Shown here one piece after another: positions 1 to 12,206 of a stretch of 64,000 nucleotides of DNA. Each line of letters starts with the position of its first letter. Position 1 is the first letter of the stretch. The notes beneath the pieces were generated by a model. That model was not told the origin of the DNA. It ran no database searches and was given only the letters and a program-made list of their open reading frames with translations. Source of the DNA: a virus. The stretch is from positions 1-64,000 of IMG/VR virus record IMGVR_UViG_3300037148_000025. The stretch is one strand, 5' to 3'. The translations under genes and the position numbers were made by a program.

Positions 1-217
1 ACAGGCTAACGTCGTGCCTTGCCCATGATGGTTTACCACCATCCACGGTCCCGGACGCGCTACAGGCTAACGTCGTGCCTTGCCCATGATGGTTTACCAC
101 CATCCACGGTCCCGGACGCGCTACAGGCTAACGTCGTGCCTTGCCCATGATGGTTTACCACCATCCACGGTCCCGGACGCGCTACAGGTCAATGTCGTGC
201 CTTGTCCATGATGGTTT
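1..217. repeat. 61-bp tandem repeat: 3 identical copies plus a degenerate partial 4th; probably continues off-window
   Basis: Unit ACAGGCTAACGTCGTGCCTTGCCC...GGACGCGCT starts at 1, 62 and 123; a variant starts at 184. Confidence 0.95.
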
Positions 218-223
218 AGGGAC

Positions 224-257
224 AAAAAAGCCCGGACCCTGTAAAAGCAGTCCGGGC
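224..257 (-). terminator. Rho-independent terminator of the early minus-strand operon
   Basis: GCCCGGAC/GTCCGGGC stem followed by T6 on the minus strand, just downstream of the ORF ending at 297. Confidence 0.8.
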
Positions 258-296
258 AAGTATTCTAATGATCTCTAATAATTATTCACCTGTATT

Positions 297-1235
297 TTAA
301 TCTACTCCTCTGAATTTTCTTCCCGGAGTGATCTCGACTAGTTTGGAAAGCTTTCCGGATATATCCTCCATTTTCTCATGGATAGAGGTCTTGAAGCTTT
401 CATCTTTTTTGATCACATCCACCGATAAGTTTGGATGAATGATTTTTTGTACTTCATTCACAAGCGCATCGAGATCTGCATCATTCGTAACATTTCGCGC
501 CTTAAATGTGTCCAAAAAATCTTGTAGATTCGTGACCGTGCTGGCGAATAGACGCTTGGGCTTTCCGTCTGCATTGGGTTCGAGAGCCGTCTGCAAGTGG
601 TTTACCAGTTCAAAAAAATTCTCGCGCAGTGCTAAGACAATTCCTTCTACTGCCTGTTCGATTTTTGCCTGTGCCTTGCTCACTTCTTTTTGATATGTCT
701 CTTCATTCATGCCAGCGGGCACACTGAAAGAAAAATACTGGTATTCAAACGAGAAAAAGCTTTTCAAGCTTTGCACAGATGGGTAATCCGCCGCACTGTA
801 TAGCAGTTCCACGGAAAGTCCCAACTCGTGTGCAAGCTTTTCTAGTTCATTCTTCGCATTGTCGCACAGTGCAGGATAAGCTTCGATAAACGCATTAACC
901 AATTCGTTACGCTCGTCTATGAAAGCTTCGCATCGGTCCGTTACAGAATCTACCAGTTCACGAGACAAGAGTAGGATACCCATGTCTCCATACGGCAAAC
1001 ACACGTTGTAAAGGTATGCGCGCATCTGTCCATCGGCAGAACGTATCGCATCCAATTCTTTAGACTCTAGCAGAGTCTTCTGGATTTTCACAAGACGAGT
1101 ATTCGCAGAATTGTTAGATGCTAGCACACTGTTGGAAACCTTTTTTGTGTTACCTAGCACGTGGAAAGCAGTGCGGAGAAAAACTGTCTTGTCAATTATT
1201 TTCGTTGCGTCTGTGATTTTAGCAGTCATTTTCAT
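297..1235 (-). CDS. DUF3150-like alpha-helical protein
   Basis: 312-aa ORF (CLPYG..., FIEAYP, YPSVQSLKSFFSF); resembles DUF3150 proteins that accompany AAA/CbbQ modules. Confidence 0.55.
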   Translation of the reverse strand: MKMTAKITDATKIIDKTVFLRTAFHVLGNTKKVSNSVLASNNSANTRLVKIQKTLLESKELDAIRSADGQMRAYLYNVCLPYGDMGILLLSRELVDSVTDRCEAFIDERNELVNAFIEAYPALCDNAKNELEKLAHELGLSVELLYSAADYPSVQSLKSFFSFEYQYFSFSVPAGMNEETYQKEVSKAQAKIEQAVEGIVLALRENFFELVNHLQTALEPNADGKPKRLFASTVTNLQDFLDTFKARNVTNDADLDALVNEVQKIIHPNLSVDVIKKDESFKTSIHEKMEDISGKLSKLVEITPGRKFRGVD

Positions 1236-1270
1236 TCATCCTTTTCTGTGCGCGTAACGCACGGGTTAGC

Positions 1271-1597
1271 TTACAAAAAATTCTCGTTTAGCCATGATAC
1301 CTCAAATTCCATAGCCAGTGACCGTGACCGAAAATCTATCGGAATGATGGGACCGTGGACAGGTGTTAGATTGATTCTCCATAGACAATGCCACGTACGC
1401 GTATACTCTGACACTCTACCGGCATCGCCAAACAATGCGCGTAACGCGTAAAAGATAACGCGCAGTGTATGGCATACCGGTTCAATGTGACTTGCGCGTT
1501 TAACAAGAGAATCGCTAGTCAAAAATCCTCTTGTCATATCGTTAACTAGAAAACGAGTCACAGCATTTTCATCAATGGTGAAAAGGTAAGTTTGCAT
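1271..1597 (-). CDS. Hypothetical protein
   Basis: 108-aa ORF; start overlaps the upstream stop (TAATG). Confidence 0.65.
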   Translation of the reverse strand: MQTYLFTIDENAVTRFLVNDMTRGFLTSDSLVKRASHIEPVCHTLRVIFYALRALFGDAGRVSEYTRTWHCLWRINLTPVHGPIIPIDFRSRSLAMEFEVSWLNENFL

Positions 1598-1800
1598 TAC
1601 CGTCCTACTTTCACACTTGTCAGATTCGTTTCACGGTACTCGGGTTTACTGATTACTTTCGTAGTTTCCCCAATCTCCGCAAAAAGTTTAACAACGTCGT
1701 CACAGCCTTGACCGTGGAATCCTGTCAAGTCTACACTAAAAGATGCGTCTGATTCGTCGATCACAATTTTAATCATTTTCGCCATGTTCCTACACTCCAA
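1597..1800 (-). CDS. DUF2997-like small protein (likely start 1785)
   Basis: IKIVID...VDLTGFHGQGC...KPEY motif, positioned after the DUF1257-like gene. Confidence 0.65.
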   Translation of the reverse strand: MECRNMAKMIKIVIDESDASFSVDLTGFHGQGCDDVVKLFAEIGETTKVISKPEYRETNLTSVKVGR

Positions 1801-2233
1801 GATACTGCAAGGTTATCTTGCCGTTTTTTTGAGTAGTTGAAGCTAAGCGCATACCCTTACTAGCAGCTTGCCGCATAATGCCATGCTTTGCATACGATAC
1901 TGCTAGACGCGTTAACCATGCCTTATTTGCATAATGAGAATCATACTCTGAGATTATCGCACCGTACAATCCAGTTTTTGTATCCTTGCGGAATCCAAGG
2001 TCATTCGAAGAACTGCCACTTAGGACAGAGTCAACATGCTTTCGGCGAATGATAATCTCCGCCTTATCGCCGGATGCATCAAGATACGTAGTTACGCGCC
2101 CGCAAAAATCGTACATAAGTTGAGGGTTAGTGTTACGCTCAATCTGCGCGATAGTAAAGCCCATGTCTTGCAGTGCAAGACATAACAATTCAGCATCATG
2201 AAACTGCGTTTTGTTTTCGGAATACTTACTCAC
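1790..2233 (-). CDS. DUF1257/Ycf35-like protein
   Basis: GTG start after GAGGTG; SKYS..KTQF.D..LL..AL.DMG...NDLGFRK...Y.AI..EYD. Confidence 0.65.
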   Translation of the reverse strand: MSKYSENKTQFHDAELLCLALQDMGFTIAQIERNTNPQLMYDFCGRVTTYLDASGDKAEIIIRRKHVDSVLSGSSSNDLGFRKDTKTGLYGAIISEYDSHYANKAWLTRLAVSYAKHGIMRQAASKGMRLASTTQKNGKITLQYLGV

Positions 2234-2412
2234 TGTGACACCTCGTTTAGGAAAACTAAGCCCGCATCGATTAATGCTCCTGCCATGCGCCCATAGCATC
2301 CTTGTAACTGCCACACTAGACCAGAATTGACAAGATCTTGGAAAAGAGCAACTGTTTCATCCTTGTCTAATTCACCGTTTTCCCATCCTATCATAGCATC
2401 AAGTTGATTCAT
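2230..2412 (-). CDS. Small conserved phage protein
   Basis: ATG at 2412 after GGAG; WENGEL...LFQDLVNSGLVWQLQGCYGR. Confidence 0.7.
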   Translation of the reverse strand: MNQLDAMIGWENGELDKDETVALFQDLVNSGLVWQLQGCYGRMAGALIDAGLVFLNEVSQ

Positions 2413-2455
2413 TTTTTTTTCTCCATTCTGAGTGTACGCTGTACACTCCGCTGTC

Positions 2456-3988
2456 TTACCTGATTTTTCTTCCGCTTGTCTCTGACACTGTAGAGACACT
2501 AGACACTTGCTCAGCATACTGGTATATGCCGGGATAACTTGCCGACAAATACTTCCCGGCACAGTCACGGCGTAATCCATCGATTAGCGTACCACTCGAC
2601 TGTGACACCGGTATGACATACGTAGCAGCGTCACAAAGTGATAGCTTAAGACGGTATGCCTTAGAGCAACACTCTTCAATTTCGCGGCCTGTCCATCCGT
2701 TGTCAGATGGGAGTGTATCTGATACCGGGATACTAAAACGCTCACGATGAATTGTCCATATTGATGCACGCTCTATGTCTGTTGGCAGGTCAAAGAAGAA
2801 AATGCCGTCACGGAATCTAGAGCGCAATTCAGGAGGCAAGGCGTCAATACTATTGCACGTGCCAATGCAGAGTACCCGCTTGTCTGATACCGCGTCTACA
2901 GTAGCAATTGCAGCGCGGAGGTTGGCCCCGGACGAACCGACAAGACTTGACTGCATACCGGCAAGGTCAAACTTAATAAACGGTATGCCATACGATGCAG
3001 CGATAGCTTTCGCTATTTGCGATTTTCCTGCACCCGGTACTCCGATAAACAATGCACCCCGCATTTTTGTATCTTCCATCCAAGTCAACATATTCTGTGT
3101 TAGTTCTTGTTTCACTCCGCTTGTGTCTGTGCTACTCCCTGCATAAGCTTTTTCAATCTCGTCGATGAAGATAATGCAATGCGGTTGCTCCCTGCCTGTG
3201 AGCAAAGCTTGCATATAAGCTTTAATGGTCTGGAGTCCACCGATAGCGTCTAATGACTCTTTACCATTGGACACTGATAAACCGTTAGTCTGGTTTATCG
3301 TTTGACGTTTACGACTCCATAACTCCTCGACATTAAGACTCTTGTGTTCAATGTCAATACTCATGGCGACACTTTGTTCGGCGGGAAAGTAAGGCAGTCC
3401 AATCAAGGCGTCCACTGCCTTGAGTAATTCATCGGCGTTAGGTTCCGGTAGTTTGGCGCATTTGAACGTATCGCATACCACGTTTTCGAGTGTCTCTCTT
3501 GTCGGCAACGGTTCATCTAGCACTAACACATCATGGGATAACTCGGATGGAAGTGTAGCTCCCTGTCCACAAAGCATAACTAGCATGTTACCGTGTGCCT
3601 TGAAGTCGTTGCGAAGATTCCAGATAGCTTGAATCACGTTTGAGTCAGACCAGTGAAGATGAGTATTTGACAAGAAAATGATGCAGTCGTCTCCAATTAC
3701 AGGGACTTCTTGCACATTTTTCTTACTCACTAAGCGTAGCGCTTCGATCAAGCTTTCAGACGCTACGGGTGTAGACTCCAGCACAGAGAAAAGCGTATTC
3801 AATACGTTTTTGCTCTTGGGAGTAATGGCTTGAAAGCCATTGATACAATCCCATAAAATCAATGGTGGAATATCATCGGTGAAAAGCGAGCGAATAGCGT
3901 CTACCGTGGACTTAGAGTCAAACGTTCGCACTGCGACAAGTGGAGTTGATACTTGTCGCGCGGCTGTGAAGCTTTTCAAAAATTCCAT
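2456..3988 (-). CDS. Ycf46-like AAA+ ATPase with transposed Walker A/B blocks
   Basis: Degenerate N-terminal AAA domain, IGGL, IIFIDEIEK, GVPGAGKS, TCN...LPPEL.SRF..IFFFDLP, GWTGREIE. Confidence 0.85.
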   Translation of the reverse strand: MEFLKSFTAARQVSTPLVAVRTFDSKSTVDAIRSLFTDDIPPLILWDCINGFQAITPKSKNVLNTLFSVLESTPVASESLIEALRLVSKKNVQEVPVIGDDCIIFLSNTHLHWSDSNVIQAIWNLRNDFKAHGNMLVMLCGQGATLPSELSHDVLVLDEPLPTRETLENVVCDTFKCAKLPEPNADELLKAVDALIGLPYFPAEQSVAMSIDIEHKSLNVEELWSRKRQTINQTNGLSVSNGKESLDAIGGLQTIKAYMQALLTGREQPHCIIFIDEIEKAYAGSSTDTSGVKQELTQNMLTWMEDTKMRGALFIGVPGAGKSQIAKAIAASYGIPFIKFDLAGMQSSLVGSSGANLRAAIATVDAVSDKRVLCIGTCNSIDALPPELRSRFRDGIFFFDLPTDIERASIWTIHRERFSIPVSDTLPSDNGWTGREIEECCSKAYRLKLSLCDAATYVIPVSQSSGTLIDGLRRDCAGKYLSASYPGIYQYAEQVSSVSTVSETSGRKIR

Positions 3989-4033
3989 TGTTCTACTCCA
4001 TTCTTCTGAGCGTATACGATACGCGGTTGATTA

Positions 4034-4195
4034 CTACAGTGAAGGAATCAACTCAAGGTGCTGGCGAAGCCATACTGCATATGTGCCATGCTTAGCGCGT
4101 AACTCGTTAGCAAGTTTAACGGCATCGGTATACCGTACGCGCTTGTTAGTTTCCTTGCCATTGACTACTACAGCGTAAAAGATTCGATTAGTCAT
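4034..4195 (-). CDS. Small hypothetical protein (53 aa, MTNRIFYAVVVNGK...)
   Basis: GGAG RBS; ORF lies between two copies of the GCGTAT-N3-ATACGC motif. Confidence 0.6.
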   Translation of the reverse strand: MTNRIFYAVVVNGKETNKRVRYTDAVKLANELRAKHGTYAVWLRQHLELIPSL

Positions 4196-4237
4196 TTTCA
4201 TTCTCCATGATACAGGTTAGAGCGTATACGATACGCG

Positions 4238-4324
4238 TTAGCGTTTTTGGCATCCATTCATTAGGTCTGCAATTGCAAGGATGATAAAATACAAAGTACA
4301 TCCGAAAAGAATGGGAACGATCAT
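4238..4324 (-). CDS. 28-aa hydrophobic peptide
   Basis: AAGGAG RBS; MIVPILFGCTLYFIILAIADLMNGCQKR. Confidence 0.5.
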   Translation of the reverse strand: MIVPILFGCTLYFIILAIADLMNGCQKR

Positions 4325-4361
4325 TTTTCTCCTTCAAGCGTATATGATACGCGGTTGACTG

Positions 4362-4604
4362 TTAACGGATAATGGTAATTAGTGCATCGCCCCGAAAATG
4401 GTGACAATTACCATCCACGAAAATCACGCCTAAAACGTTATCAGCGGATGGGCCGATGATGCGCTGGATTACTTCGCTATCATCTAACAGATAGTCGCCT
4501 ATCCTAAGATGATCGGCACATACGGTGCGCAATGCACTGCGACTGTGCGGAGTGTTCAGGAAACTTGCAACTGTCACTTGTGTTCCTCTCTCTCTGTCTT
4601 GCAT
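4362..4604 (-). CDS. Hypothetical protein
   Basis: 80-aa ORF at the head of the early operon. Confidence 0.5.
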   Translation of the reverse strand: MQDRERGTQVTVASFLNTPHSRSALRTVCADHLRIGDYLLDDSEVIQRIIGPSADNVLGVIFVDGNCHHFRGDALITIIR

Positions 4605-5063
4605 TACCAGAATAGCATGTCCTCAGAATATGTTGTCAAGAACTATTTTCATATAATAGGATACAAGGTGTTCATAGTGTTCATACCATCAAATATCTTT
4701 TAATAAAGTGTATCTGCCACGGACCATTTATATTCGCTTTTCGTTCGTTTATTCTTCGCCATTACTTCGCCTATTCTGATAGAATCGTATGTATCCTCTT
4801 TGTATTCAATAGTTTACATTCACTTTTTGATTTTTAAAATCCTCCGTGTGCTCCTGCAAGGCACGTATACGATACGCGGTGACCAAAAACGAGACAAAGG
4901 GCACAGACAAGCCATACAGAGCGATAGAGCGATATTTATACAAGAGTAAACATAGCAAGATATAAGTCTAATGTAATCATACTAATGCAAACATTTATTA
5001 CACTTCATCGAATGTTATACATTAGTAAACAGTTTTATTGATAATAAACAAGTTATGAAGTCC

Positions 5064-5108
5064 ATACCCTGGTAGGGTATCAGTTGATAGTATACCCTGG
5101 TAGGGTAT
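5064..5108. promoter_or_regulatory. Two identical 17-bp palindromes ATACCCTGGTAGGGTAT
   Basis: Located at 5064-5080 and 5092-5108. Confidence 0.6.
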
Positions 5109-6011
5109 ATATCAGGTCGTAGTCAAAAACTGCTATGCAAAAATTACATAGTCCAATGCGGCACAAAGGGACACATAGAACACACTGGTACGCTATACGC
5201 GGTCACTAATTATCGGCATAGATAAGGTGTCAGAGAGTAGATAGACGCGCTACAGGTCAAGTGCTGATCACGGTCAATCGGTATACGATACGCGGTCACT
5301 AGTTGTCGCTCTATTTGTATGAGTGTATATAATCCTGTATGCGACTATCCTGTTGTCCTGCTACCCGGCATAGATGCAGTAGACCATAATGCAATAGACC
5401 AGTATGCTCCCTGTCCAATGGTTACGCTTATAGCTACGCTTATATGTATGCCGTACATAGGTTGTTAGTTGAGTGTTGATGGGATGAAAGTAAAGTTGAT
5501 AGGATGAATATGTTGATAGCATGAAAGTAAAGTTGATACGCTGAAAATTAGTATATACGAATATTCGCATATACTTTTTCCTTTTTAAAATGTCAACATT
5601 ACCCTGTATTGTTTACATCGTGCTGTAAGCCCGGTATTTTCTACGACTTACGAGGAAGAGGAGAATTAAGAGCAAAAAGTAGGATGCACCAAAACGATAA
5701 GACCGGAATGGGCAACTAATTGATTAGTAATCTGTAAGTCACTGAAAGTGCAGGTCTTAGGTCGTAACCAACCCTGCTAAACACGGATGCCGTACGGGTC
5801 TCCGCCGTACCCGCACGACTCACGGAAACGGACCCGGCATAAGCATGAACAGATATTGTTTTCAATAGTTTATATATAAGGTACTATACTACAAAAATAG
5901 GGTACCAATCTTTTTAAGAAAGGTACCCTATTCTTTTAGAGTTTATACTAATTTTAAAGGTGGTATGATAGTATAATACAGTCAGTGACTTACAAATGGC
6001 TACGCCTATTA

Positions 6012-6644
6012 CTAATCAACAAGACACCGGGATAGTGGCGTATATGTTTTCATCCTTAGGCTAGCAATCTCTTCCTCCTTCTGATCGAGTTCGTGTTGCT
6101 GCTGATCTATTACGGAGACAAGACGCATAACCAACCCTGTAGACCACGGAGTAGAGTGATTCTCATGGCTGCGCCTATCTCCCGGTCTTGGTAAACTATG
6201 GGCGTAGCCATTAGGGACAGCGTCGGGGACAGCGTCGGGGGCATGGGGATGTACCTCATGATTGTCCCCAAAGAATCCTTCTTCCATTCCGGGTAACACA
6301 CCGGTACCACTTCGCACATAGACTTTCAGACCCTTGGGAGACTTAATCTCTCCGAAGTTCCTAGTGTCTTGGAGTGGGTGACAGCATGAATAGGCGGAGC
6401 CACATGTATGCTTGAGAGCGTGCAGCAATCTTGTACTCTTGCTTGTGCTCTTTTCCGAAGTTCCTGCGGAAATATTACCAGCATCCTGTCCTGACTCCGT
6501 CTGTGCTGCCCCTGTCAGTCCTGCCGCCTTCTGTCCTGACTCTGCGTGGTTCTTAAACCCTCCTGCATAACCAACCTGCACACCTGCATAAGCTGGCATA
6601 CCCGGTTGCCATGATCTCTCATAATCATTCCTACTAATTATCAT
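6012..6644 (-). CDS. Hypothetical protein with C-terminal coiled coil
   Basis: 210-aa ORF with GGAGGAG RBS. Confidence 0.65.
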   Translation of the reverse strand: MIISRNDYERSWQPGMPAYAGVQVGYAGGFKNHAESGQKAAGLTGAAQTESGQDAGNISAGTSEKSTSKSTRLLHALKHTCGSAYSCCHPLQDTRNFGEIKSPKGLKVYVRSGTGVLPGMEEGFFGDNHEVHPHAPDAVPDAVPNGYAHSLPRPGDRRSHENHSTPWSTGLVMRLVSVIDQQQHELDQKEEEIASLRMKTYTPLSRCLVD

Positions 6645-6679
6645 ACTTCTCCTCCTTCTTAGTTCTTAGTTCTTAGTTC

Positions 6680-7060
6680 TTAGTTCTCCCTAACTCTTTG
6701 CACAGAAACCAACCCTATCCCCTGCTCCTTCCGAAGTCCCAGAGCATTATAGGCTACTTCAGACAGATCGATGCTCCAGTTTGACTTCTTCCTATCGGTA
6801 ATCCGTACATGAATAGCCGCATGATTTTTTAGGTTCGTAATCTTAACCAGAGTCCCAAGCTTCCATCCGTTGAATGATGCTGAGTACTCGTTCCTATCAT
6901 ATGGCCTCCCATTCGCCATGATTTTTCCTTCCCTCTTTCTATTGTAGAAGGTAGCGTAGGTTGTCCCTGATGGTTTATGGACAGCATGGGGAGTAGCTTT
7001 CACTACCGATGTAGTCGGAGAAACTATTGCCAAAGCAACGTAAAGAATGTGTTCGAGCAT
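6680..7060 (-). CDS. rlpA: RlpA-like double-psi beta-barrel lytic transglycosylase with signal peptide
   Basis: ATFY...MANG..YD....A...GTLVKITN...VRITDR...IDLS..AY.ALG. Confidence 0.85.
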   Translation of the reverse strand: MLEHILYVALAIVSPTTSVVKATPHAVHKPSGTTYATFYNRKREGKIMANGRPYDRNEYSASFNGWKLGTLVKITNLKNHAAIHVRITDRKKSNWSIDLSEVAYNALGLRKEQGIGLVSVQRVREN

Positions 7061-7062
7061 CT

Positions 7063-7245
7063 TTATTTCCTACCTCCTTCTAGCCTTGTAATGTCCGCAA
7101 GCAGAGATTTTGAGAACTCACACAACTGGTTGAACGACGCCTCTTCTGTGTTGCCCGTCCTTTTGATCCACTCTTGCTTAAGAATCTTGGCAAACTCCTC
7201 TGAAGTTACAGATTCATAGGCAGATACAACTTGTTGTTCACTCAT
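7063..7245 (-). CDS. Hypothetical protein
   Basis: Translationally coupled ORF with RBS. Confidence 0.6.
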   Translation of the reverse strand: MSEQQVVSAYESVTSEEFAKILKQEWIKRTGNTEEASFNQLCEFSKSLLADITRLEGGRK

Positions 7246-7448
7246 TTTTCTCCTTCGGCATGTACTTCGCTAGGTACTTCACTAGGTACTTCGCTTGATT
7301 CGGTAGCTCCGACGTGCTTCTCGCACACCGGTTGACGTGAAGAAAGGTTCTTACCAAACCTTCCTGTAATGAAGCGCCAAAAGGACGCTGGCTGTAAGCA
7401 CTCTACACATCTCCGTGGTGTGCAGTAACTACTCATATGTTCGTACAT
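7242..7448 (-). CDS. Small Cys/His (Zn-binding-like) protein
   Basis: CVEC...CEKH; SEVP repeats; AGGAGG RBS. Confidence 0.6.
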   Translation of the reverse strand: MYEHMSSYCTPRRCVECLQPASFWRFITGRFGKNLSSRQPVCEKHVGATESSEVPSEVPSEVHAEGEK

Positions 7449-7629
7449 ATTCCTCCTTGTTTAAAATCTGAACTTCCTACTAGTCTATAGTTATCTACAC
7501 GATCCACCTTGGTTGATCTTGTAACTATTTGACATTCTCATGATCTACTTAAGTTGATCTTGGATCAAATGCACTGGCTCATTCAACTTAGGTTGATTAT
7601 CATCTTTATATTATATGTACGCCATACCC

Positions 7630-8307
7630 CTATGTTATGCGAACTGGATTTAACTTAAAATCAATTAGATGTGGCTTATTAACTGGTTTATACTGCTCAT
7701 TGCATATCGACACATTATAGAAAACAGTTCCTGCTAACTCATTGTCACCAACTAAGACTCCACCTTGGTCTGCCCCTGCGTGGATGTGCCCGAAGATATG
7801 AAGTTTAGGTCTAACAACCTTAACCGTAGTTAACAACTCTTCGCAGCCTACATGTGCTACTCCCCATAGCTCTCCTACTTCATCCATAATACCAAAAGGC
7901 GGTCCGTGTGTTATAAGAATATCCATATCACGAGGTATTTTATCCCAATGCTTTTCAATCTCTGGTCCTCTTTGAACATTGAATGCCCAATTGTTGAACT
8001 TAGGCTGATAAGGACTTCCCCAAAAATTTACTCCATTAATAGTTACTCCAGAATCCTTAAGGTAGATGGTTTCTCTAAAAAGACTAAGACATTCTATCTC
8101 CTCATCTTCAAATAACCTGTCGTGATTCCCGGCGATTAGTATCTTGTACACATGAGGAAGTTTATTCCAAAAAGCTGCGAAATCCGCAGCTTCTTGTATA
8201 CGATACCCCGCATTCATCAGATCTCCAGCAAAGATGACCACATCTGCGTCTGGAACTTTTACATTCTTGTGTAATCCGTGGGTATCGCTAAATGCTGCTA
8301 TTTTCAT
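7630..8307 (-). CDS. Calcineurin-like metallophosphoesterase (MPPED/239FB-like)
   Basis: SDTH, AGD, GNHD, THGPP, FGHIH motifs. Confidence 0.9.
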   Translation of the reverse strand: MKIAAFSDTHGLHKNVKVPDADVVIFAGDLMNAGYRIQEAADFAAFWNKLPHVYKILIAGNHDRLFEDEEIECLSLFRETIYLKDSGVTINGVNFWGSPYQPKFNNWAFNVQRGPEIEKHWDKIPRDMDILITHGPPFGIMDEVGELWGVAHVGCEELLTTVKVVRPKLHIFGHIHAGADQGGVLVGDNELAGTVFYNVSICNEQYKPVNKPHLIDFKLNPVRIT

Positions 8308-8912
8308 TCTTCGCTCCTAGTCATTCCCTGTGGGAACGTATTCGGTACGTCTTTCATAACATCTTGAATCTCTTTCATCTTGAGGGCTATCTCATCTAAA
8401 GATACTGGGAACATATTCCAAGCATCTACACCAACATCTAGAGACAATGCAGACTCTTCTCGTGTAACCCCTTGAACACTTCTTGATAAACCATTGTGAC
8501 TATGGCCGTAAAGCTGCCACGATCCTCTGTTTGACCCATTCCACGTTCTCAATGCATAATGACAAAGCACAATCTTGGGGAACCCGGCAGGGTGTATCTC
8601 TGCGATGTCTTTGTTCCAAATAAATAAGTCTCTCAAGTTCTTGTTATGGTCGATTAGTTCTTCATGATTACCTCTCACATAATAATGCTGCCCATTAAGT
8701 CTTTTAACAATACTAACTGCTTCTAATAGTGGAATAGTTCTCCAGAAAATGTCTCCAAGATGATAGACAAGATCGCCTTTCTTCACAACAGAGTTGTGGT
8801 TTTCAATCAACCCCTCTTTCATTTCCTCAATATCTTTGTATGGACGATTGCAAAACTTTATTACGTTGTTGTGTCCATAGTGCTCATCGGAAGTTAGCCA
8901 ACAGTTGTTCAT
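8304..8912 (-). CDS. Phage metallophosphoesterase
   Basis: TSDEHYGH, HLGD, GNHE, LCHY, YGHSH, DVGVD motifs. Confidence 0.9.
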   Translation of the reverse strand: MNNCWLTSDEHYGHNNVIKFCNRPYKDIEEMKEGLIENHNSVVKKGDLVYHLGDIFWRTIPLLEAVSIVKRLNGQHYYVRGNHEELIDHNKNLRDLFIWNKDIAEIHPAGFPKIVLCHYALRTWNGSNRGSWQLYGHSHNGLSRSVQGVTREESALSLDVGVDAWNMFPVSLDEIALKMKEIQDVMKDVPNTFPQGMTRSEE

Positions 8913-8921
8913 ATTTCCTTC

Positions 8922-9128
8922 CTATTCAAAACCTTCATCAATCTCCCAATCTTCTGCGAGCAATTCGTCTGCACCCATCATGGCGTCCTGTGTAGCACCC
9001 TTGGGGGAGTGGAGTTGAACTACAGGAAATCTCTTCGGTATCAGCCACCAATATAGTGGAGGCCATTTAGGACGCCTTACCCGCTTCCCTTCTTGCATCC
9101 ATTTCGCGGCTTGCTTAATATCTGCCAT
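8922..9128 (-). CDS. DUF2829/Tad2-like small protein
   Basis: A..M..GKRVRR..W ... DELLAEDWEI signature. Confidence 0.6.
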   Translation of the reverse strand: MADIKQAAKWMQEGKRVRRPKWPPLYWWLIPKRFPVVQLHSPKGATQDAMMGADELLAEDWEIDEGFE

Positions 9129-9146
9129 TATTTTGTCCTTTCCTTT

Positions 9147-9365
9147 CTATTCAAAACCTTTCCCACCACATTGACAGTTTTCATAACCATCTTCGTGATG
9201 GTCACTGCTACAATTCAAACAAAAACTTACTAGCTTTCCACATGTCTTTCCCGCTGAATATCCACAAAAACACTCATGCACATTCTCCCAAATAGCATAA
9301 CCATTTCCTTCTATCTGGGGTTTGTAGTTATCACACGGCTGTTTCCCTACTGTAAACGTTCCCAT
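9147..9365 (-). CDS. Cys-rich hypothetical protein
   Basis: 72 aa with multiple CxC/CxxC and HH; AAGGAG RBS. Confidence 0.6.
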   Translation of the reverse strand: MGTFTVGKQPCDNYKPQIEGNGYAIWENVHECFCGYSAGKTCGKLVSFCLNCSSDHHEDGYENCQCGGKGFE

Positions 9366-9378
9366 ATTGCTCCTTTCT

Positions 9379-9468
9379 TGGCGGGGAAGGTAGGATTCGA
9401 ACCCACGATACCCTTTCGGGTATGCCGGTTTTCAAGACCGGAGCCATCAACCACTCGGCCACTTCCCC
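9379..9468 (-). tRNA. tRNA-Ser(UGA)
   Basis: Cloverleaf, long variable arm, G73, encoded CCA. Confidence 0.95.
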
Positions 9469-9575
9469 GCTCGGCCAACCCTCCATTAATAACCATTGTA
9501 TCACATACCACATAAAAAAGCAATACCCTTTCGGGGATTATTTTAGATAGACTTCTCGCTAACATATTGTGGACA

Positions 9576-9652
9576 TGGTGCCCAAGGAGAGAGTCGAACT
9601 CACACTGTGCGGCTTTTAAGGCCGTTGCCTCTTCCAGTTGGGCTACTTGGGC
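9576..9652 (-). tRNA. tRNA-Leu(UAA), short variable arm
   Basis: Anticodon loop CU-UAA-AA, TTCGA T-loop, CCA. Confidence 0.85.
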
Positions 9653-9745
9653 AATTTTATTGTCCGTGTTTCGGCTGGCCCCCGAAAATCTCTCGTCTAT
9701 CCATCCCTTTACAGGTTCATAGCGCCGGACAATCTTGGTTGTTGT

Positions 9746-9940
9746 CTAGTAATTGCAAGTGATGATGGGTGGGCCTATATCGGGCCTAGGATCATAAAGA
9801 GGCATCGTTTGTGGAGTGTAAACGGGATAGAACGGCATCGGATATGTTGGCGGCGCTAGAACCTGCTCGTCTTCTGTAACTGTTACCCGCTTGATTACCT
9901 TGCCTTCTTTATTGAGTATCTCTGTCGTTGTTGTTTTCAT
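9746..9940 (-). CDS. Small Pro-rich hypothetical protein
   Basis: GGAGG RBS before ATG at 9940. Confidence 0.55.
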   Translation of the reverse strand: MKTTTTEILNKEGKVIKRVTVTEDEQVLAPPTYPMPFYPVYTPQTMPLYDPRPDIGPPIITCNY

Positions 9941-9961
9941 TGCATCCTCCTGAATGTGTTT

Positions 9962-10044
9962 TGGTGCGAGCAGAGGGACTTGAACCCCCATGATTGCTCA
10001 ATGGGTTCTAAACCCATCGCGTCTGCCAATTCCGCCATACTCGC
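9962..10044 (-). tRNA. tRNA-Leu(UAG)
   Basis: Cloverleaf, loop UU-UAG-AA, CCA. Confidence 0.95.
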
Positions 10045-10054
10045 ATAGTTACTT

Positions 10055-10129
10055 TGGTGGGCAATGCTGGACTTGAACCAGCAACTTCCACCTTGTAAAA
10101 GTGGCACTCTACCATTGAGTTAATTGCCC
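10055..10129 (-). tRNA. tRNA-Val(UAC)
   Basis: Cloverleaf, loop UU-UAC-AA, CCA. Confidence 0.95.
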
Positions 10130-10173
10130 GGTATTATATACCGTTTCATGTAAGATTTGTATCATATACATAG

Positions 10174-10250
10174 TGGTGGGGGAGGGTGGATTTGAACCAC
10201 CGATTTCAGCCTTATGAGGGCGGCGAGATAGGCCACTTCTCTACTCCCCT
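10174..10250 (-). tRNA. tRNA-CAU (Met; A1:C72 mismatch is initiator-like)
   Basis: Loop CU-CAU-AA, CCA; lacks the three consecutive G-C anticodon-stem pairs of canonical fMet. Confidence 0.85.
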
Positions 10251-10255
10251 AAACT

Positions 10256-10329
10256 TGGTCGGGGTACGTCGAATCGGACGACGACCACAGGTTTCCAGAA
10301 CCCGGATGCTGCCATAACACCTTACCCCG
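10256..10329 (-). tRNA. Atypical tRNA-Pro(UGG) (C33, A37, UCC T-loop)
   Basis: C1-G72/A73 Pro identity elements; loop UC-UGG-AA. Confidence 0.75.
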
Positions 10330-10335
10330 AAACTG

Positions 10336-10602
10336 TTACTTACAACCTCCGGAACAATCAATTGGATGCCCTGCTCTGCACATTGTCTTTTTGTCCCGCT
10401 TCTGCACAAAGGCATACATTGTGTCTCCACCTTCCATTGGACACACAGGACATTGTACACGAAACTTGCAGGGCTTTCCAGCATTGCTTCCCGCTGTAGA
10501 GCTAGACTTCTTTTGTCGTGCAAGTTTGTTGATACCTGCTTGACGTGCTCCTACATCCATACGGGGTGCTCGACCCTCATCTTCCAAAAACCATGTAGTC
10601 AT
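10336..10602 (-). CDS. Cys-containing hypothetical protein
   Basis: CPVC...C..GH..DC; RBS present. Confidence 0.55.
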   Translation of the reverse strand: MTTWFLEDEGRAPRMDVGARQAGINKLARQKKSSSTAGSNAGKPCKFRVQCPVCPMEGGDTMYAFVQKRDKKTMCRAGHPIDCSGGCK

Positions 10603-10613
10603 ATCTTCCTTTC

Positions 10614-10692
10614 TGGGGTGAAGTGCCGGATTCGAACCGTGCGAAAACTGGATTCACAGTCCAGCGCATTAAACCTCTCTGCCAACCTCACC
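10614..10692 (-). tRNA. tRNA-His(GUG)
   Basis: G-1/C73, loop CU-GUG-AA, CCA. Confidence 0.95.
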
Positions 10693-10799
10693 ATAAATTT
10701 AGCAGATTTCCTCTTTCGGCCCTCTGCAAACTGTCAAACATGTTTTTCTGCACTATACCCCGGATGGAGTATTTTTCATCTCCTATCCTCATGCTGGTG

Positions 10800-11160
10800 G
10801 TCATGTTAGCACCGCTGGCTCATTAAATCTTAATGGCCCGTTCTGTTTCCAAGTGGGCCAATCTCAGGTTAACTTACATTAACCAATTCTGGCAACATTT
10901 CGTTGCTAGTCTCATTGTCATTACTGACAGTGATTCCTGCAAGAAGTGCTTCCATTAACGTTGAATTTTCATTCGCAGTTATTGTTTTCCGCTGTTAAGG
11001 TAGTCGGCTACCTGCATGTCCACAACACTTAACCAATACTGTCGAAACCTTGACGTGCCCATAAATTTTATTGGTGGACACGACGGGAGTCGAACCCGTG
11101 TCCAATATTACTAATTATTGCTTCATACATGCTTACTCGCAACGGGGTGCTAGCCGCCAC
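10800..11160 (-). ncRNA. ssrA: Two-piece (circularly permuted) tmRNA
   Basis: Acceptor piece ending GGUUCGACUCCCGUCGUGUCCACCA (3' end at 11072) precedes an 11-nt spacer and the 5' end GGGCACGUCAAGGUUUCGAC (11060). G3-U70 pair and A73 present. Resume context AUAACU-GCG; tag ORF 10976-10869. Confidence 0.9.
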
Positions 11161-11221
11161 ACTAAACATTAGACTATACTAATAGCCTTCTCCTGCACTT
11201 GGATGAACCCCGAAGATTAAA

Positions 11222-11332
11222 CTACTTTGACTCTTTCTTCAGCTTCTTAATTAGCTTCTTATCATCCTTCTTGTCCTCACGTTCAAACTTTCCGACAAGA
11301 CCCTTCTTTGCTGCTTTCTTCTTAGCTGCCAT
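11222..11332 (-). CDS. 36-aa Lys-rich basic peptide
   Basis: AGGAG RBS; MAAKKKAAKKGLVGKFEREDKKDDKKLIKKLKKESK. Confidence 0.6.
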   Translation of the reverse strand: MAAKKKAAKKGLVGKFEREDKKDDKKLIKKLKKESK

Positions 11333-11350
11333 TATTCTCCTATTTATTTT

Positions 11351-11422
11351 TGGTGGAGCGACCAACCCCTTATAATCCCGCCCCGCGCCCCTGCCCTACG
11401 TCCACCAGAGGATTCCCACTCC
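11351..11422 (-). ncRNA. Putative CCA-ended tRNA-like RNA of unknown class
   Basis: 7-bp stem GGAGUGG/UCGCUCC plus ACCA; 72 nt; no D, anticodon or T arm; G-tract interior. Confidence 0.4.
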
Positions 11423-11493
11423 GGGCATTGCGCCCGGTAATCTAGCCTTCATACCGAAAGGCATGGGCTAGAAACTTGTTGACATTAAAGTGC

Positions 11494-11676
11494 TTACAAC
11501 TTCTTGATGTCAGCCACGACTGCTGAAACATCCGCTTTGACTGTTGAAACAAAACTGGGAACCTTTGCTTGCAACGCTGTGAAGTCTGCCGTTACCTTCG
11601 CCTTAAAGCTGGCGTTCGAGAAGTATTCATATACTCCGATTGCAAGGGCTACTACTGCCACAATTTCAAATACCAT
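11494..11676 (-). CDS. Small membrane-anchored protein
   Basis: N-terminal TM helix, AAGGAG RBS. Confidence 0.65.
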   Translation of the reverse strand: MVFEIVAVVALAIGVYEYFSNASFKAKVTADFTALQAKVPSFVSTVKADVSAVVADIKKL

Positions 11677-11767
11677 ATTTTCTCCTTAATGTTACTACAA
11701 CGGGGGATTCACGCCCTCCACCAGCTAGTTATCATGGTCTAGCAACCCCTTTCCTGACTATAAGTAC

Positions 11768-11796
11768 ATTATACCACGTCTTTTCTAGTTTGTCAA
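11768..11796 (-). promoter_or_regulatory. Sigma70-type promoter
   Basis: TTGACA-17-TATAAT with extended TG. Confidence 0.8.
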
Positions 11797-12206
11797 GCCC
11801 TTTTTTGCCTCTTCTCCAACATTTTTTTCTGATCTGACACGATTTCCTGCACTAAATACCCAAGGTGATAGGCAAAAACTTCTTCTTCATGCTCGGCCTC
11901 TATCCATCTAAATATATTAGAAACAGTATGGTACGCTTCATGCACAATTTGATTTGATAGGGCATCGGTATGCAGAAACAGGTAACTTCTGGCTCTATTT
12001 GTAGAATACAAGTGAAAACCTCCAGAGTCGGAAATTTCCTCTAATCTATGGGCGGTTAGGTTTAAGCCATCTCGTTTAATTATGGCTTTCACTGCTTCTC
12101 CCAGATTGTTTACGAAGAACAGATACACTCTGTAGTCAAATGGAGGAAAAGGAATCATTGTCTCTGCCTCAATTGCCGGTATTTTTTTTATAATAGATTT
12201 CTTCAT
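11793..12206 (-). CDS. HEXXH (zincin-like) phage protein
   Basis: IVHEAYH...EEVFAYHLGY. Confidence 0.65.
   Translation of the reverse strand: MKKSIIKKIPAIEAETMIPFPPFDYRVYLFFVNNLGEAVKAIIKRDGLNLTAHRLEEISDSGGFHLYSTNRARSYLFLHTDALSNQIVHEAYHTVSNIFRWIEAEHEEEVFAYHLGYLVQEIVSDQKKMLEKRQKRA

Follow-up and report, generated by a model that had tools for sequence, protein, structure and literature searches.

The gene under study lies on the minus strand at 2456-3988 of the analysed window, a 64,000-nucleotide stretch of a metagenome-derived virus record from peat soil (IMGVR_UViG_3300037148_000025), and encodes a protein of 510 aa (P0001), with the stop codon included in these coordinates. It is the only long ORF over 2800-3260, and a GGAG sequence is located 9 nt before its ATG. 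Downstream on the same strand is a gene for a small DUF7417 protein (2230-2412; PF24192, E 2.3e-17; phrog_3908), the likely start of which is the Met at 2412, since the longer ORF to 2580 overlaps the ATPase. This is followed by a gene for a DUF1257 (Ycf35-like) protein (1790-2314, minus strand; PF06868, E 7.2e-8, above the cut-off) and one for a 67-aa protein that is only weakly DUF2997-like (1597-1800, minus strand; PF11211, E 0.078, below the cut-off). The fifth downstream gene (297-1235, minus strand) encodes a 312-aa DUF3150-like protein, whose best ESM Atlas cluster carries DUF3150 on 18% of its members (TM 0.86) and whose best BFVD hit is a 'DUF3150 domain-containing protein' (E 8e-15). 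The AlphaFold model of this protein had a pLDDT of 87.5, though comparison of its fold with the PDB returned only generic helical-bundle matches (Z <= 8.9, ClyA and designed bundles) and was not informative. A megablast search of window positions 1-12000 against cultured phages gave no match.

The 510-aa protein scored above the gathering cut-off of the Pfam AAA family (PF00004; E 1.1e-20, 74.9 bits against a cut-off of 21.2), though this score was summed over three separate stretches. Reading the translation directly revealed a GGL motif (residues 250-252), Walker B (CIIFIDE, 271-277), LTWMED (301-306), Walker A (GVPGAGKS, 316-323), pore loop 1 (SSLVGSS, 347-353), sensor 1 (VLCIGTCN, 372-379) and the Arg-finger segment (LPPELRSRF, 384-392), such that Walker B is encoded before Walker A. 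The AlphaFold model (mean pLDDT 87.3) is a confident two-domain, p97-like prediction. Its N-terminal domain (residues 1-235; 3284-3988) is an AAA-like alpha/beta fold without a P-loop, comprising five strands and a helical lid, and aligns to p97 D1, whilst the second domain opens in the normal manner with GGL and helix alpha0 (residues 253-264; together 3197-3250). This is followed by a segment designated block B (residues 270-309; 3062-3181), which contains strand beta3 (271-275) with Walker B (3158-3178), the pore-loop-2 region (DTSGV) and helix alpha3 (292-306), ending in LTWMED. Block A (residues 310-368; 2885-3061) comes next, and comprises beta1, Walker A (3020-3043), alpha1, beta2, pore loop 1 (2930-2950) and alpha2. 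The start of block C (residues 369-392; 2813-2884) contains beta4 with sensor 1 (2852-2875) and the Arg-finger helix (2813-2839). The helical lid (residues 404-480; 2549-2779), with helices at 404-417, 434-446, 451-464 and 466-476, carries the classical-clade GWTGxEI motif (431-437) and aligns with the p97 D2 and Vps4 lids. The secondary-structure order of the modelled domain is beta3-alpha3-beta1-alpha1-beta2-alpha2-beta4-beta5.

A phmmer comparison with p97 aligned query residues 309-387 to p97 D1 39-113, residues 270-315 to the following p97 segment 99-144 and residues 371-457 to 141-236. A profile constructed from 56 normal-order phage relatives likewise mapped onto the protein in four out-of-order pieces, with profile positions 17-275 corresponding to residues 2-260, 354-392 to residues 271-308 (i-E 1.4e-8), 294-352 to residues 310-368 (i-E 2e-16) and 392-440 to residues 369-416, the junctions being of 0-1 residues. 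By comparison, the Streptococcus satellite Javan368 protein matched the same profile as one collinear piece. This constitutes a clean exchange of a 39-residue block (beta3-alpha3) and a 59-residue block (beta1-alpha1-beta2-alpha2), in which both the N-terminal flank (N-domain, GGL and alpha0) and the C-terminal flank (sensor 1, Arg finger and lid) remain collinear with the normal-order relatives. These results confirm the motif order noted in the sequence-only reading, and support its proposal of an internal segment swap with intact catalytic motifs rather than a terminal circular permutation. However, what is rewired is the chain connectivity, whilst the evidence suggests that the spatial arrangement of strands and helices is the usual one.

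The protein does have two AAA-like domains, and the N-domain contains a conserved VLVLDE at 154-159, hence we considered whether the DE strand could belong to the first domain, with a cryptic Walker B following Walker A. This is very unlikely, as the DE strand lies after the GGL and alpha0 elements that open the second domain, the N-domain already has five strands and its own lid, and residues 271-308 match the Walker B/alpha3 positions of the normal-order profile. Furthermore, block A ends at residue 368 and sensor 1 starts at 369-372 with no residues between them, residue D369 being situated in an indel-prone spot.

An assembly or sequencing artefact was also considered, given that the window originates from a metagenome, but is refuted by conservation of the order across the family. 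All 119 near homologues, the 150 best 50%-identity representatives (each matching as one collinear stretch, E < 1e-146, from 2530 clusters at E <= 1e-30), the cultured Tunturiibacter phage Tunturi_3 (gp103, 43% identity) and 80 of 80 Acidobacteriota genome loci have Walker B before Walker A. Amongst 338 distinct homologues from independent metagenomes, the junction lengths were almost invariant, at 10 residues in 332 and 17 residues in 313. The identical protein was seen on 18 contigs, and the gene was found in 14 peat DNA runs; contigs from two DNA runs spanned it with no difference, and no joints or indels were apparent, although these runs may be the source of this DNA. Contigs from RNA libraries covered parts of the gene, one of which bridged the junction of blocks B and A, though DNA carry-over cannot be excluded and transcription is not claimed.

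The catalytic residues were strongly conserved in 152 representatives at or below 50% identity. Walker A K322, Walker B E277, G351 of pore loop 1, sensor-1 N379 and Arg-finger R391 were retained in 152/152, as was a Ser or Thr at position 323, whilst G316 and G319 were each retained in 151/152, D276 in 147/152, T377 in 144/152, Arg at position 390 in 126/152, G251 in 148/152, and W432 and G434 of the lid in 149/152 and 147/152, respectively. Pore loop 1 usually has Leu rather than an aromatic residue. The N-domain is already a dead AAA-like fold, yet it is very unlikely that the entire protein is a catalytically dead relic kept only as a scaffold, since this invariance is the pattern of an active site under selection. 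In addition, the only very long permuted homologue (P0145, 896 aa) is explained by an intein inside its sensor-1 motif, and inteins generally appear to favour functionally essential sites.

In structural comparisons, the best fold matches of the model were to the classical AAA clade proteins Cdc48/p97, Vps4 and spastin/FIGNL1. Model residues 1-480 aligned to p97/Cdc48 D1-D2 at Z 17.7 over 403 residues, and the C-domain superposed on p97 D2 at Z 15.6, with an rmsd of 2.8 A over 202 of about 246 residues and 25% identity, whilst Vps4 gave Z 16.4. The protein shares with these the Walker A and B motifs, sensor-1 Asn, Arg finger, a hydrophobic-Val-Gly pore loop and a GxxGxE lid motif without a sensor-2 Arg, but differs in the chain order of beta3-alpha3 relative to beta1-alpha2 and in the Leu of pore loop 1, and has no N-terminal substrate or adaptor domains of the p97 or Vps4 type. 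As these superpositions were sequential, about 44 residues of the C-domain, approximately one block, were left unaligned, and the three-dimensional position of the moved strand is therefore not directly shown. Mean-field DCA (Meff 265) paired beta3 with beta4 (I275-C374, I273-C374 and I278-G376), beta1 with beta4, beta1 with beta5 and alpha3 with alpha2, as the normal spatial arrangement predicts. This support is weak, however, because the raw top pairs were dominated by columns next to indels, and after gappy columns were filtered the strand-pair signals were only just above the 99th percentile and included one pair that does not fit (beta2-beta5, F340-G395). It thus remains possible, though unlikely, that the moved block packs elsewhere, giving a new sheet order, or inserts into a neighbouring subunit as a 3D domain swap. 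Against this, the Walker B Asp/Glu pair is kept together with the P-loop Lys, sensor-1 Asn and Arg finger, which makes sense only if they still meet at one ATP site, and the block itself was modelled at a high pLDDT of about 85-91.

The closest relatives of normal order are the Ycf46-like AAA ATPases of large tailed phages and satellites (phrog_8638), including gp050 of Rhizobium phage vB_RleS_L338C and JavanS368_0002 of Javan368. These share the degenerate N-domain followed by one active classical AAA domain and lid, as well as sub-family motifs (SGV after Walker B, LTxMQE and LP(S/P)E(L/F)LRR). L338C gp050 also shares the genome setting, with DUF1257 (gp052) and DUF2997 (gp053) genes downstream in the early/replication region, the latter (E 2.5e-5) being the positional equivalent of the 67-aa protein encoded in the window. 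However, in these relatives Walker A precedes Walker B, their identity to P0001 is only 23-26%, and the permuted protein matched phrog_8638 only in four stretches. Phylogenetic analysis placed the permuted proteins in one clan (SH-aLRT 100) separate from the normal-order proteins, suggesting that a single origin is likely, although the tree sampled only the top hits of two searches and lineages in between may exist. Of the neighbouring genes, that for the DUF3150-like protein was the most constant, being found in 71/81 viral loci (nearly all downstream of the ATPase) and downstream in 55/63 genome loci with enough flank, whilst DUF1257 was found downstream in 18/81 viral loci and 57/80 genome loci. 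Searches of NCBIfam and PADLOC gave only sub-threshold P-loop matches to IetA/IteA, CDC48 and FtsH. The match to the anti-phage ATPase IetA/IteA (NF042959) scored 32 bits against a cut-off of 510 and covered only residues 312-359, hence we reject a defence-system assignment.

Taken together, we consider with good confidence that the gene encodes a real and probably active classical-clade AAA+ ATPase of the Ycf46-like phage group, in which two adjacent chain segments of the single catalytic domain have changed places. The three rewired connections, alpha0 to beta3, alpha3 to beta1 and alpha2 to beta4, would all join the N-terminal ends of neighbouring strands on the face of the sheet away from the ATP site and pore loops, and we infer that the usual 5-1-4-3-2 sheet and active site can therefore form unchanged. 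The swap likely arose once, in an ancestor of normal order, and the most likely inferred route is a partial tandem duplication (A-B-A-B) followed by loss of the outer copies. It is now fixed in a large family of phages and prophages, mostly of Acidobacteriota. We infer that the protein works as a ring-shaped, probably hexameric, ATP-driven protein remodeller or unfoldase, with the DUF1257, DUF2997 and DUF3150-like proteins encoded downstream as its likely partners.

Non-standard motif orders are known in other enzymes. The circularly permuted GTPases (YlqF/YawG/RsgA group, order G4-G5-G1-G2-G3; cpRAS; PMC2430557) are also P-loop NTPases that retain their fold and activity, and their origin is usually explained by duplication and loss, but they belong to the TRAFAC rather than the ASCE/AAA+ class, and their change is a true circular permutation of the whole domain with new termini, whereas here two internal segments are exchanged and the domain's termini stay put. 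The permuted DNA methyltransferases (Bujnicki 2002, cited in PMC10853773) are natural families of one Rossmann-like fold with different linear orders of the catalytic motifs, though of unrelated fold and chemistry, and are comparable by analogy only. Full-text literature searches, which did not cover subscription-only papers, found no description of this order in AAA+ proteins.

A more speculative possibility, which we regard as unlikely, is that the swap is not a neutral re-threading but changes how the motor couples its parts. Helix alpha3, whose end carries the inter-subunit signalling motif (LTWMED here), is now covalently joined to the P-loop strand instead of the sensor-1 strand, whilst the pore-loop-1 helix alpha2 is joined directly to the sensor-1 strand, which could give a distinct coupling between ATP state, pore loops and neighbouring subunits. 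It would also make this the first natural AAA+ lineage to show that the ASCE core can fold and work with Walker B made before Walker A.

In every described AAA+ and, more broadly, ASCE P-loop ATPase, Walker A comes before Walker B, an order that is treated as a fixed feature of the fold and is built into every family profile. The module of DUF1257, DUF2997 and DUF3150-like genes surrounding the permuted ATPase has no known function, yet is widespread in phages and, judging by the Ycf46/Ycf35 names, in cyanobacteria and plastids. The presence of a family member in a cultured phage-host pair (Tunturi_3 gp103) makes the question directly testable. The existence of a large natural family that retains its key catalytic residues with the two core blocks exchanged suggests that the core tolerates a non-circular permutation, and offers an explanation of why profile searches fragment or under-score these proteins. 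It also offers a case study of permutation, probably by duplication, inside a domain, and a ready-made natural experiment on the folding order and allosteric wiring of AAA motors.

The only long open reading frame found across window positions 2800-3260 was located on the minus strand at 2456-3988 and encodes a protein of 510 aa (P0001), with a GGAG sequence lying 9 nt before its ATG. The order of the motifs in the translation was exactly as proposed in the sequence-only reading, in that GGL (residues 250-252) is followed by CIIFIDE (271-277), by DTSGV and LTWMED, running to residue 306, and only then by GVPGAGKS (316-323), SSLVGSS (347-353), VLCIGTCN (372-379) and LPPELRSRF (384-392). The Pfam AAA profile matched this protein well above its cut-off, but did so in three stretches.

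A phmmer search against solved structures aligned residues 309-387 of P0001 to residues 39-113 of p97 D1, whilst residues 270-315 were aligned to the p97 segment that follows (99-144) and residues 371-457 to 141-236. A profile was then built from 56 normal-order relatives and mapped onto P0001, which revealed four pieces: profile positions 17-275 mapped to residues 2-260 (N-domain, GGL and alpha0), positions 354-392 to residues 271-308 (block B; i-E 1.4e-8), positions 294-352 to residues 310-368 (block A; i-E 2e-16) and positions 392-440 to residues 369-416 (block C). A single residue separates block B from block A, and none separates block A from block C. The same pattern was obtained with four other family members, whereas the normal-order protein Javan368 gave one collinear piece. 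The swap is real at the sequence level and, as both flanks are collinear, represents an exchange of two adjacent internal segments, not a circular permutation of the domain.

The possibility that this order is an artefact was excluded by its occurrence throughout the family. All 119 near homologues have Walker B about 45 residues before Walker A, and a profile search of 1.84 billion representatives retrieved 2530 clusters at E <= 1e-30, of which the best 150 all matched as one collinear stretch at E < 1e-146. In an alignment of 152 sequences, E277, K322, G351, N379 and R391 were invariant, and D276 was kept in 147. The junction lengths hardly varied across 338 sequences, with D306 to G316 spanning 10 residues in 332 of these and A360 to T377 spanning 17 residues in 313. 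Among the homologues, P0145 (896 aa) was found to harbour an intein-like insert of roughly 400 residues, between residues about 377 and 786, with a homing-endonuclease-like middle and placed exactly inside the sensor-1 motif (IATC, the insert ending HN, then CNS). Two long members of the normal-order family (P0346 and P0355) carry Hint/intein Pfam domains and lack a contiguous P-loop. Another permuted homologue, P0210, has a zinc-ribbon-like insert (CPKC...CERC) at residues about 170-195, in the lid of the degenerate N-domain.

A total of 264 viral contigs with a relative were retrieved from IMG/VR, and 513 stretches from GTDB genomes. The best 80 of the latter were almost all in Acidobacteriota assemblies, some on megabase contigs and with several copies per genome, and all 80 had the swapped order and no stops. 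For instance, one Acidobacteriota MAG held four separate copies of the permuted ATPase on different contigs (loci L089, L094, L095 and L102) and another held three (L088, L111 and L113), some of these contigs being megabase-sized, which suggests several related prophages or another multicopy mobile element. One cultured phage, Tunturiibacter phage Tunturi_3, encodes the permuted protein as gp103, at 43% identity.

The genome from which the window derives is a complete virus record of 89.4 kb with terminal repeats. The gene occurred at 98-100% of sampled words in 14 peat metagenome DNA runs, though these may include the source sample, and partly in RNA-library contigs. Contigs of two DNA runs spanned 2300-4100 with no difference, indel or joint, and one RNA-library contig bridged the junction between blocks B and A. 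One RNA-library contig (run X16) differed at 7 positions in 151 nt (3653-3803) whilst the neighbouring contigs were identical; a closely related strain is probably present in the same peat samples. In addition, contigs of two DNA runs and one RNA-library run left the window sequence behind position 4025 with the same 30-nt consensus, and the 18 nt at 4008-4025 were also present at a second place in those contigs. This looks like a population variant at the GCGTAT-N3-ATACGC element just upstream of the ATPase gene.

Normal-order relatives with the same N-domain were identified at 23-26% identity, including gp050 of Rhizobium phage L338C, its large family on contigs of 90-110 kb, and the protein of the Streptococcus satellite Javan368. 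L338C gp050 is followed by DUF1257 and DUF2997 genes. The ATPase of the window is followed by genes encoding a DUF7417 protein, a DUF1257 protein (E 7.2e-8), a weakly DUF2997-like protein of 67 aa, a protein of 108 aa and a DUF3150-like protein of 312 aa. The mechanically called reading frame of the DUF7417 gene (2230-2580, minus strand) overlaps the 3' end of the ATPase gene by 125 nt, but the Pfam match starts at residue 63, so that the real start is probably the Met at 2412, 44 nt after the ATPase stop. The DUF3150-like gene (297-1235, minus strand) was the most constant neighbour, accompanying the ATPase in 71/81 viral loci (nearly all downstream of it) and lying downstream of it in 55/63 genome loci with enough flank. 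Its product is predicted to be a small beta sheet plus very long helices (pLDDT 87.5), and had no informative match among solved structures. The permuted protein therefore sits in the same kind of module as its normal-order cousins.

The phylogeny of these proteins was inferred after the blocks had been re-ordered, for alignment only, and included 39 permuted proteins, 30 normal-order proteins and Javan368. It was found that the permuted proteins fall on one side of a branch with SH-aLRT 100, and a single origin from a normal-order ancestor is the simplest reading. The route by which the swap arose is inferred; we favour a tandem duplication (A-B-A-B) followed by loss of the outer copies, though no intermediate was found.

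An AlphaFold model generated with an alignment of 65 sequences had a mean pLDDT of 87.3. The predicted order of elements in the second domain was alpha0 (253-264), strand 271-275, helix 292-306, strand 310-316, helix 322-332, strand 337-340, helix 350-368, strand 372-378, strand 395-399 and the lid. The whole model aligned to p97/Cdc48 D1-D2 (Z 17.7, 403 residues), which indicates that the N-domain is a degenerate D1-like AAA fold without a P-loop, whilst the C-domain aligned to p97 D2 at an rmsd of 2.8 A over 202 of about 246 residues, and to Vps4 at Z 16.4. The unaligned remainder is about the size of one block, which is what a sequential aligner must leave out, and the position of the moved strand is thus not directly shown by these superpositions. 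A mean-field covariation analysis, although noisy (Meff 265), gave its best strand-strand signals for beta3-beta4 (I275-C374, I273-C374 and I278-G376), beta1-beta4 (L313-G376) and beta1-beta5 (F314-F399), along with alpha3-alpha2 contacts. All of these fit the normal 5-1-4-3-2 arrangement, but one further pair (beta2-beta5) does not. From the established ASCE topology it may be inferred that the three new connections all join the N-terminal ends of adjacent strands, on the face opposite the ATP site, and that they keep right-handed crossovers.

The protein carries the catalytic motifs of the classical AAA clade and its predicted fold is consistent with that clade, the exception being the linear order, and it was not collinear with any curated profile. 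The nearest precedents for motif re-ordering in P-loop NTPases are the circularly permuted GTPases (PMC2430557), which belong to a different class and show a different kind of permutation. No description of an AAA+ protein with Walker B before Walker A was found in full-text literature searches, albeit without most subscription journals, and this family-wide internal permutation of the AAA core thus appears to be undescribed.

The conserved features of the family, namely the P-loop Lys, the Walker B Asp-Glu pair, the sensor-1 Asn, the Arg finger, a hydrophobic-Val-Gly pore loop and a classical-clade lid motif (GWTGxEI), point, by inference, to a probably active, ring-forming, substrate-threading AAA motor. 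The gene lies in the early/replication part of the genome, with phosphoesterases and a DNA polymerase nearby. The swap links the end of alpha3 (LTWMED, the position of the inter-subunit signalling motif in classical AAA proteins) to the P-loop strand and, speculatively, may therefore alter allosteric coupling.
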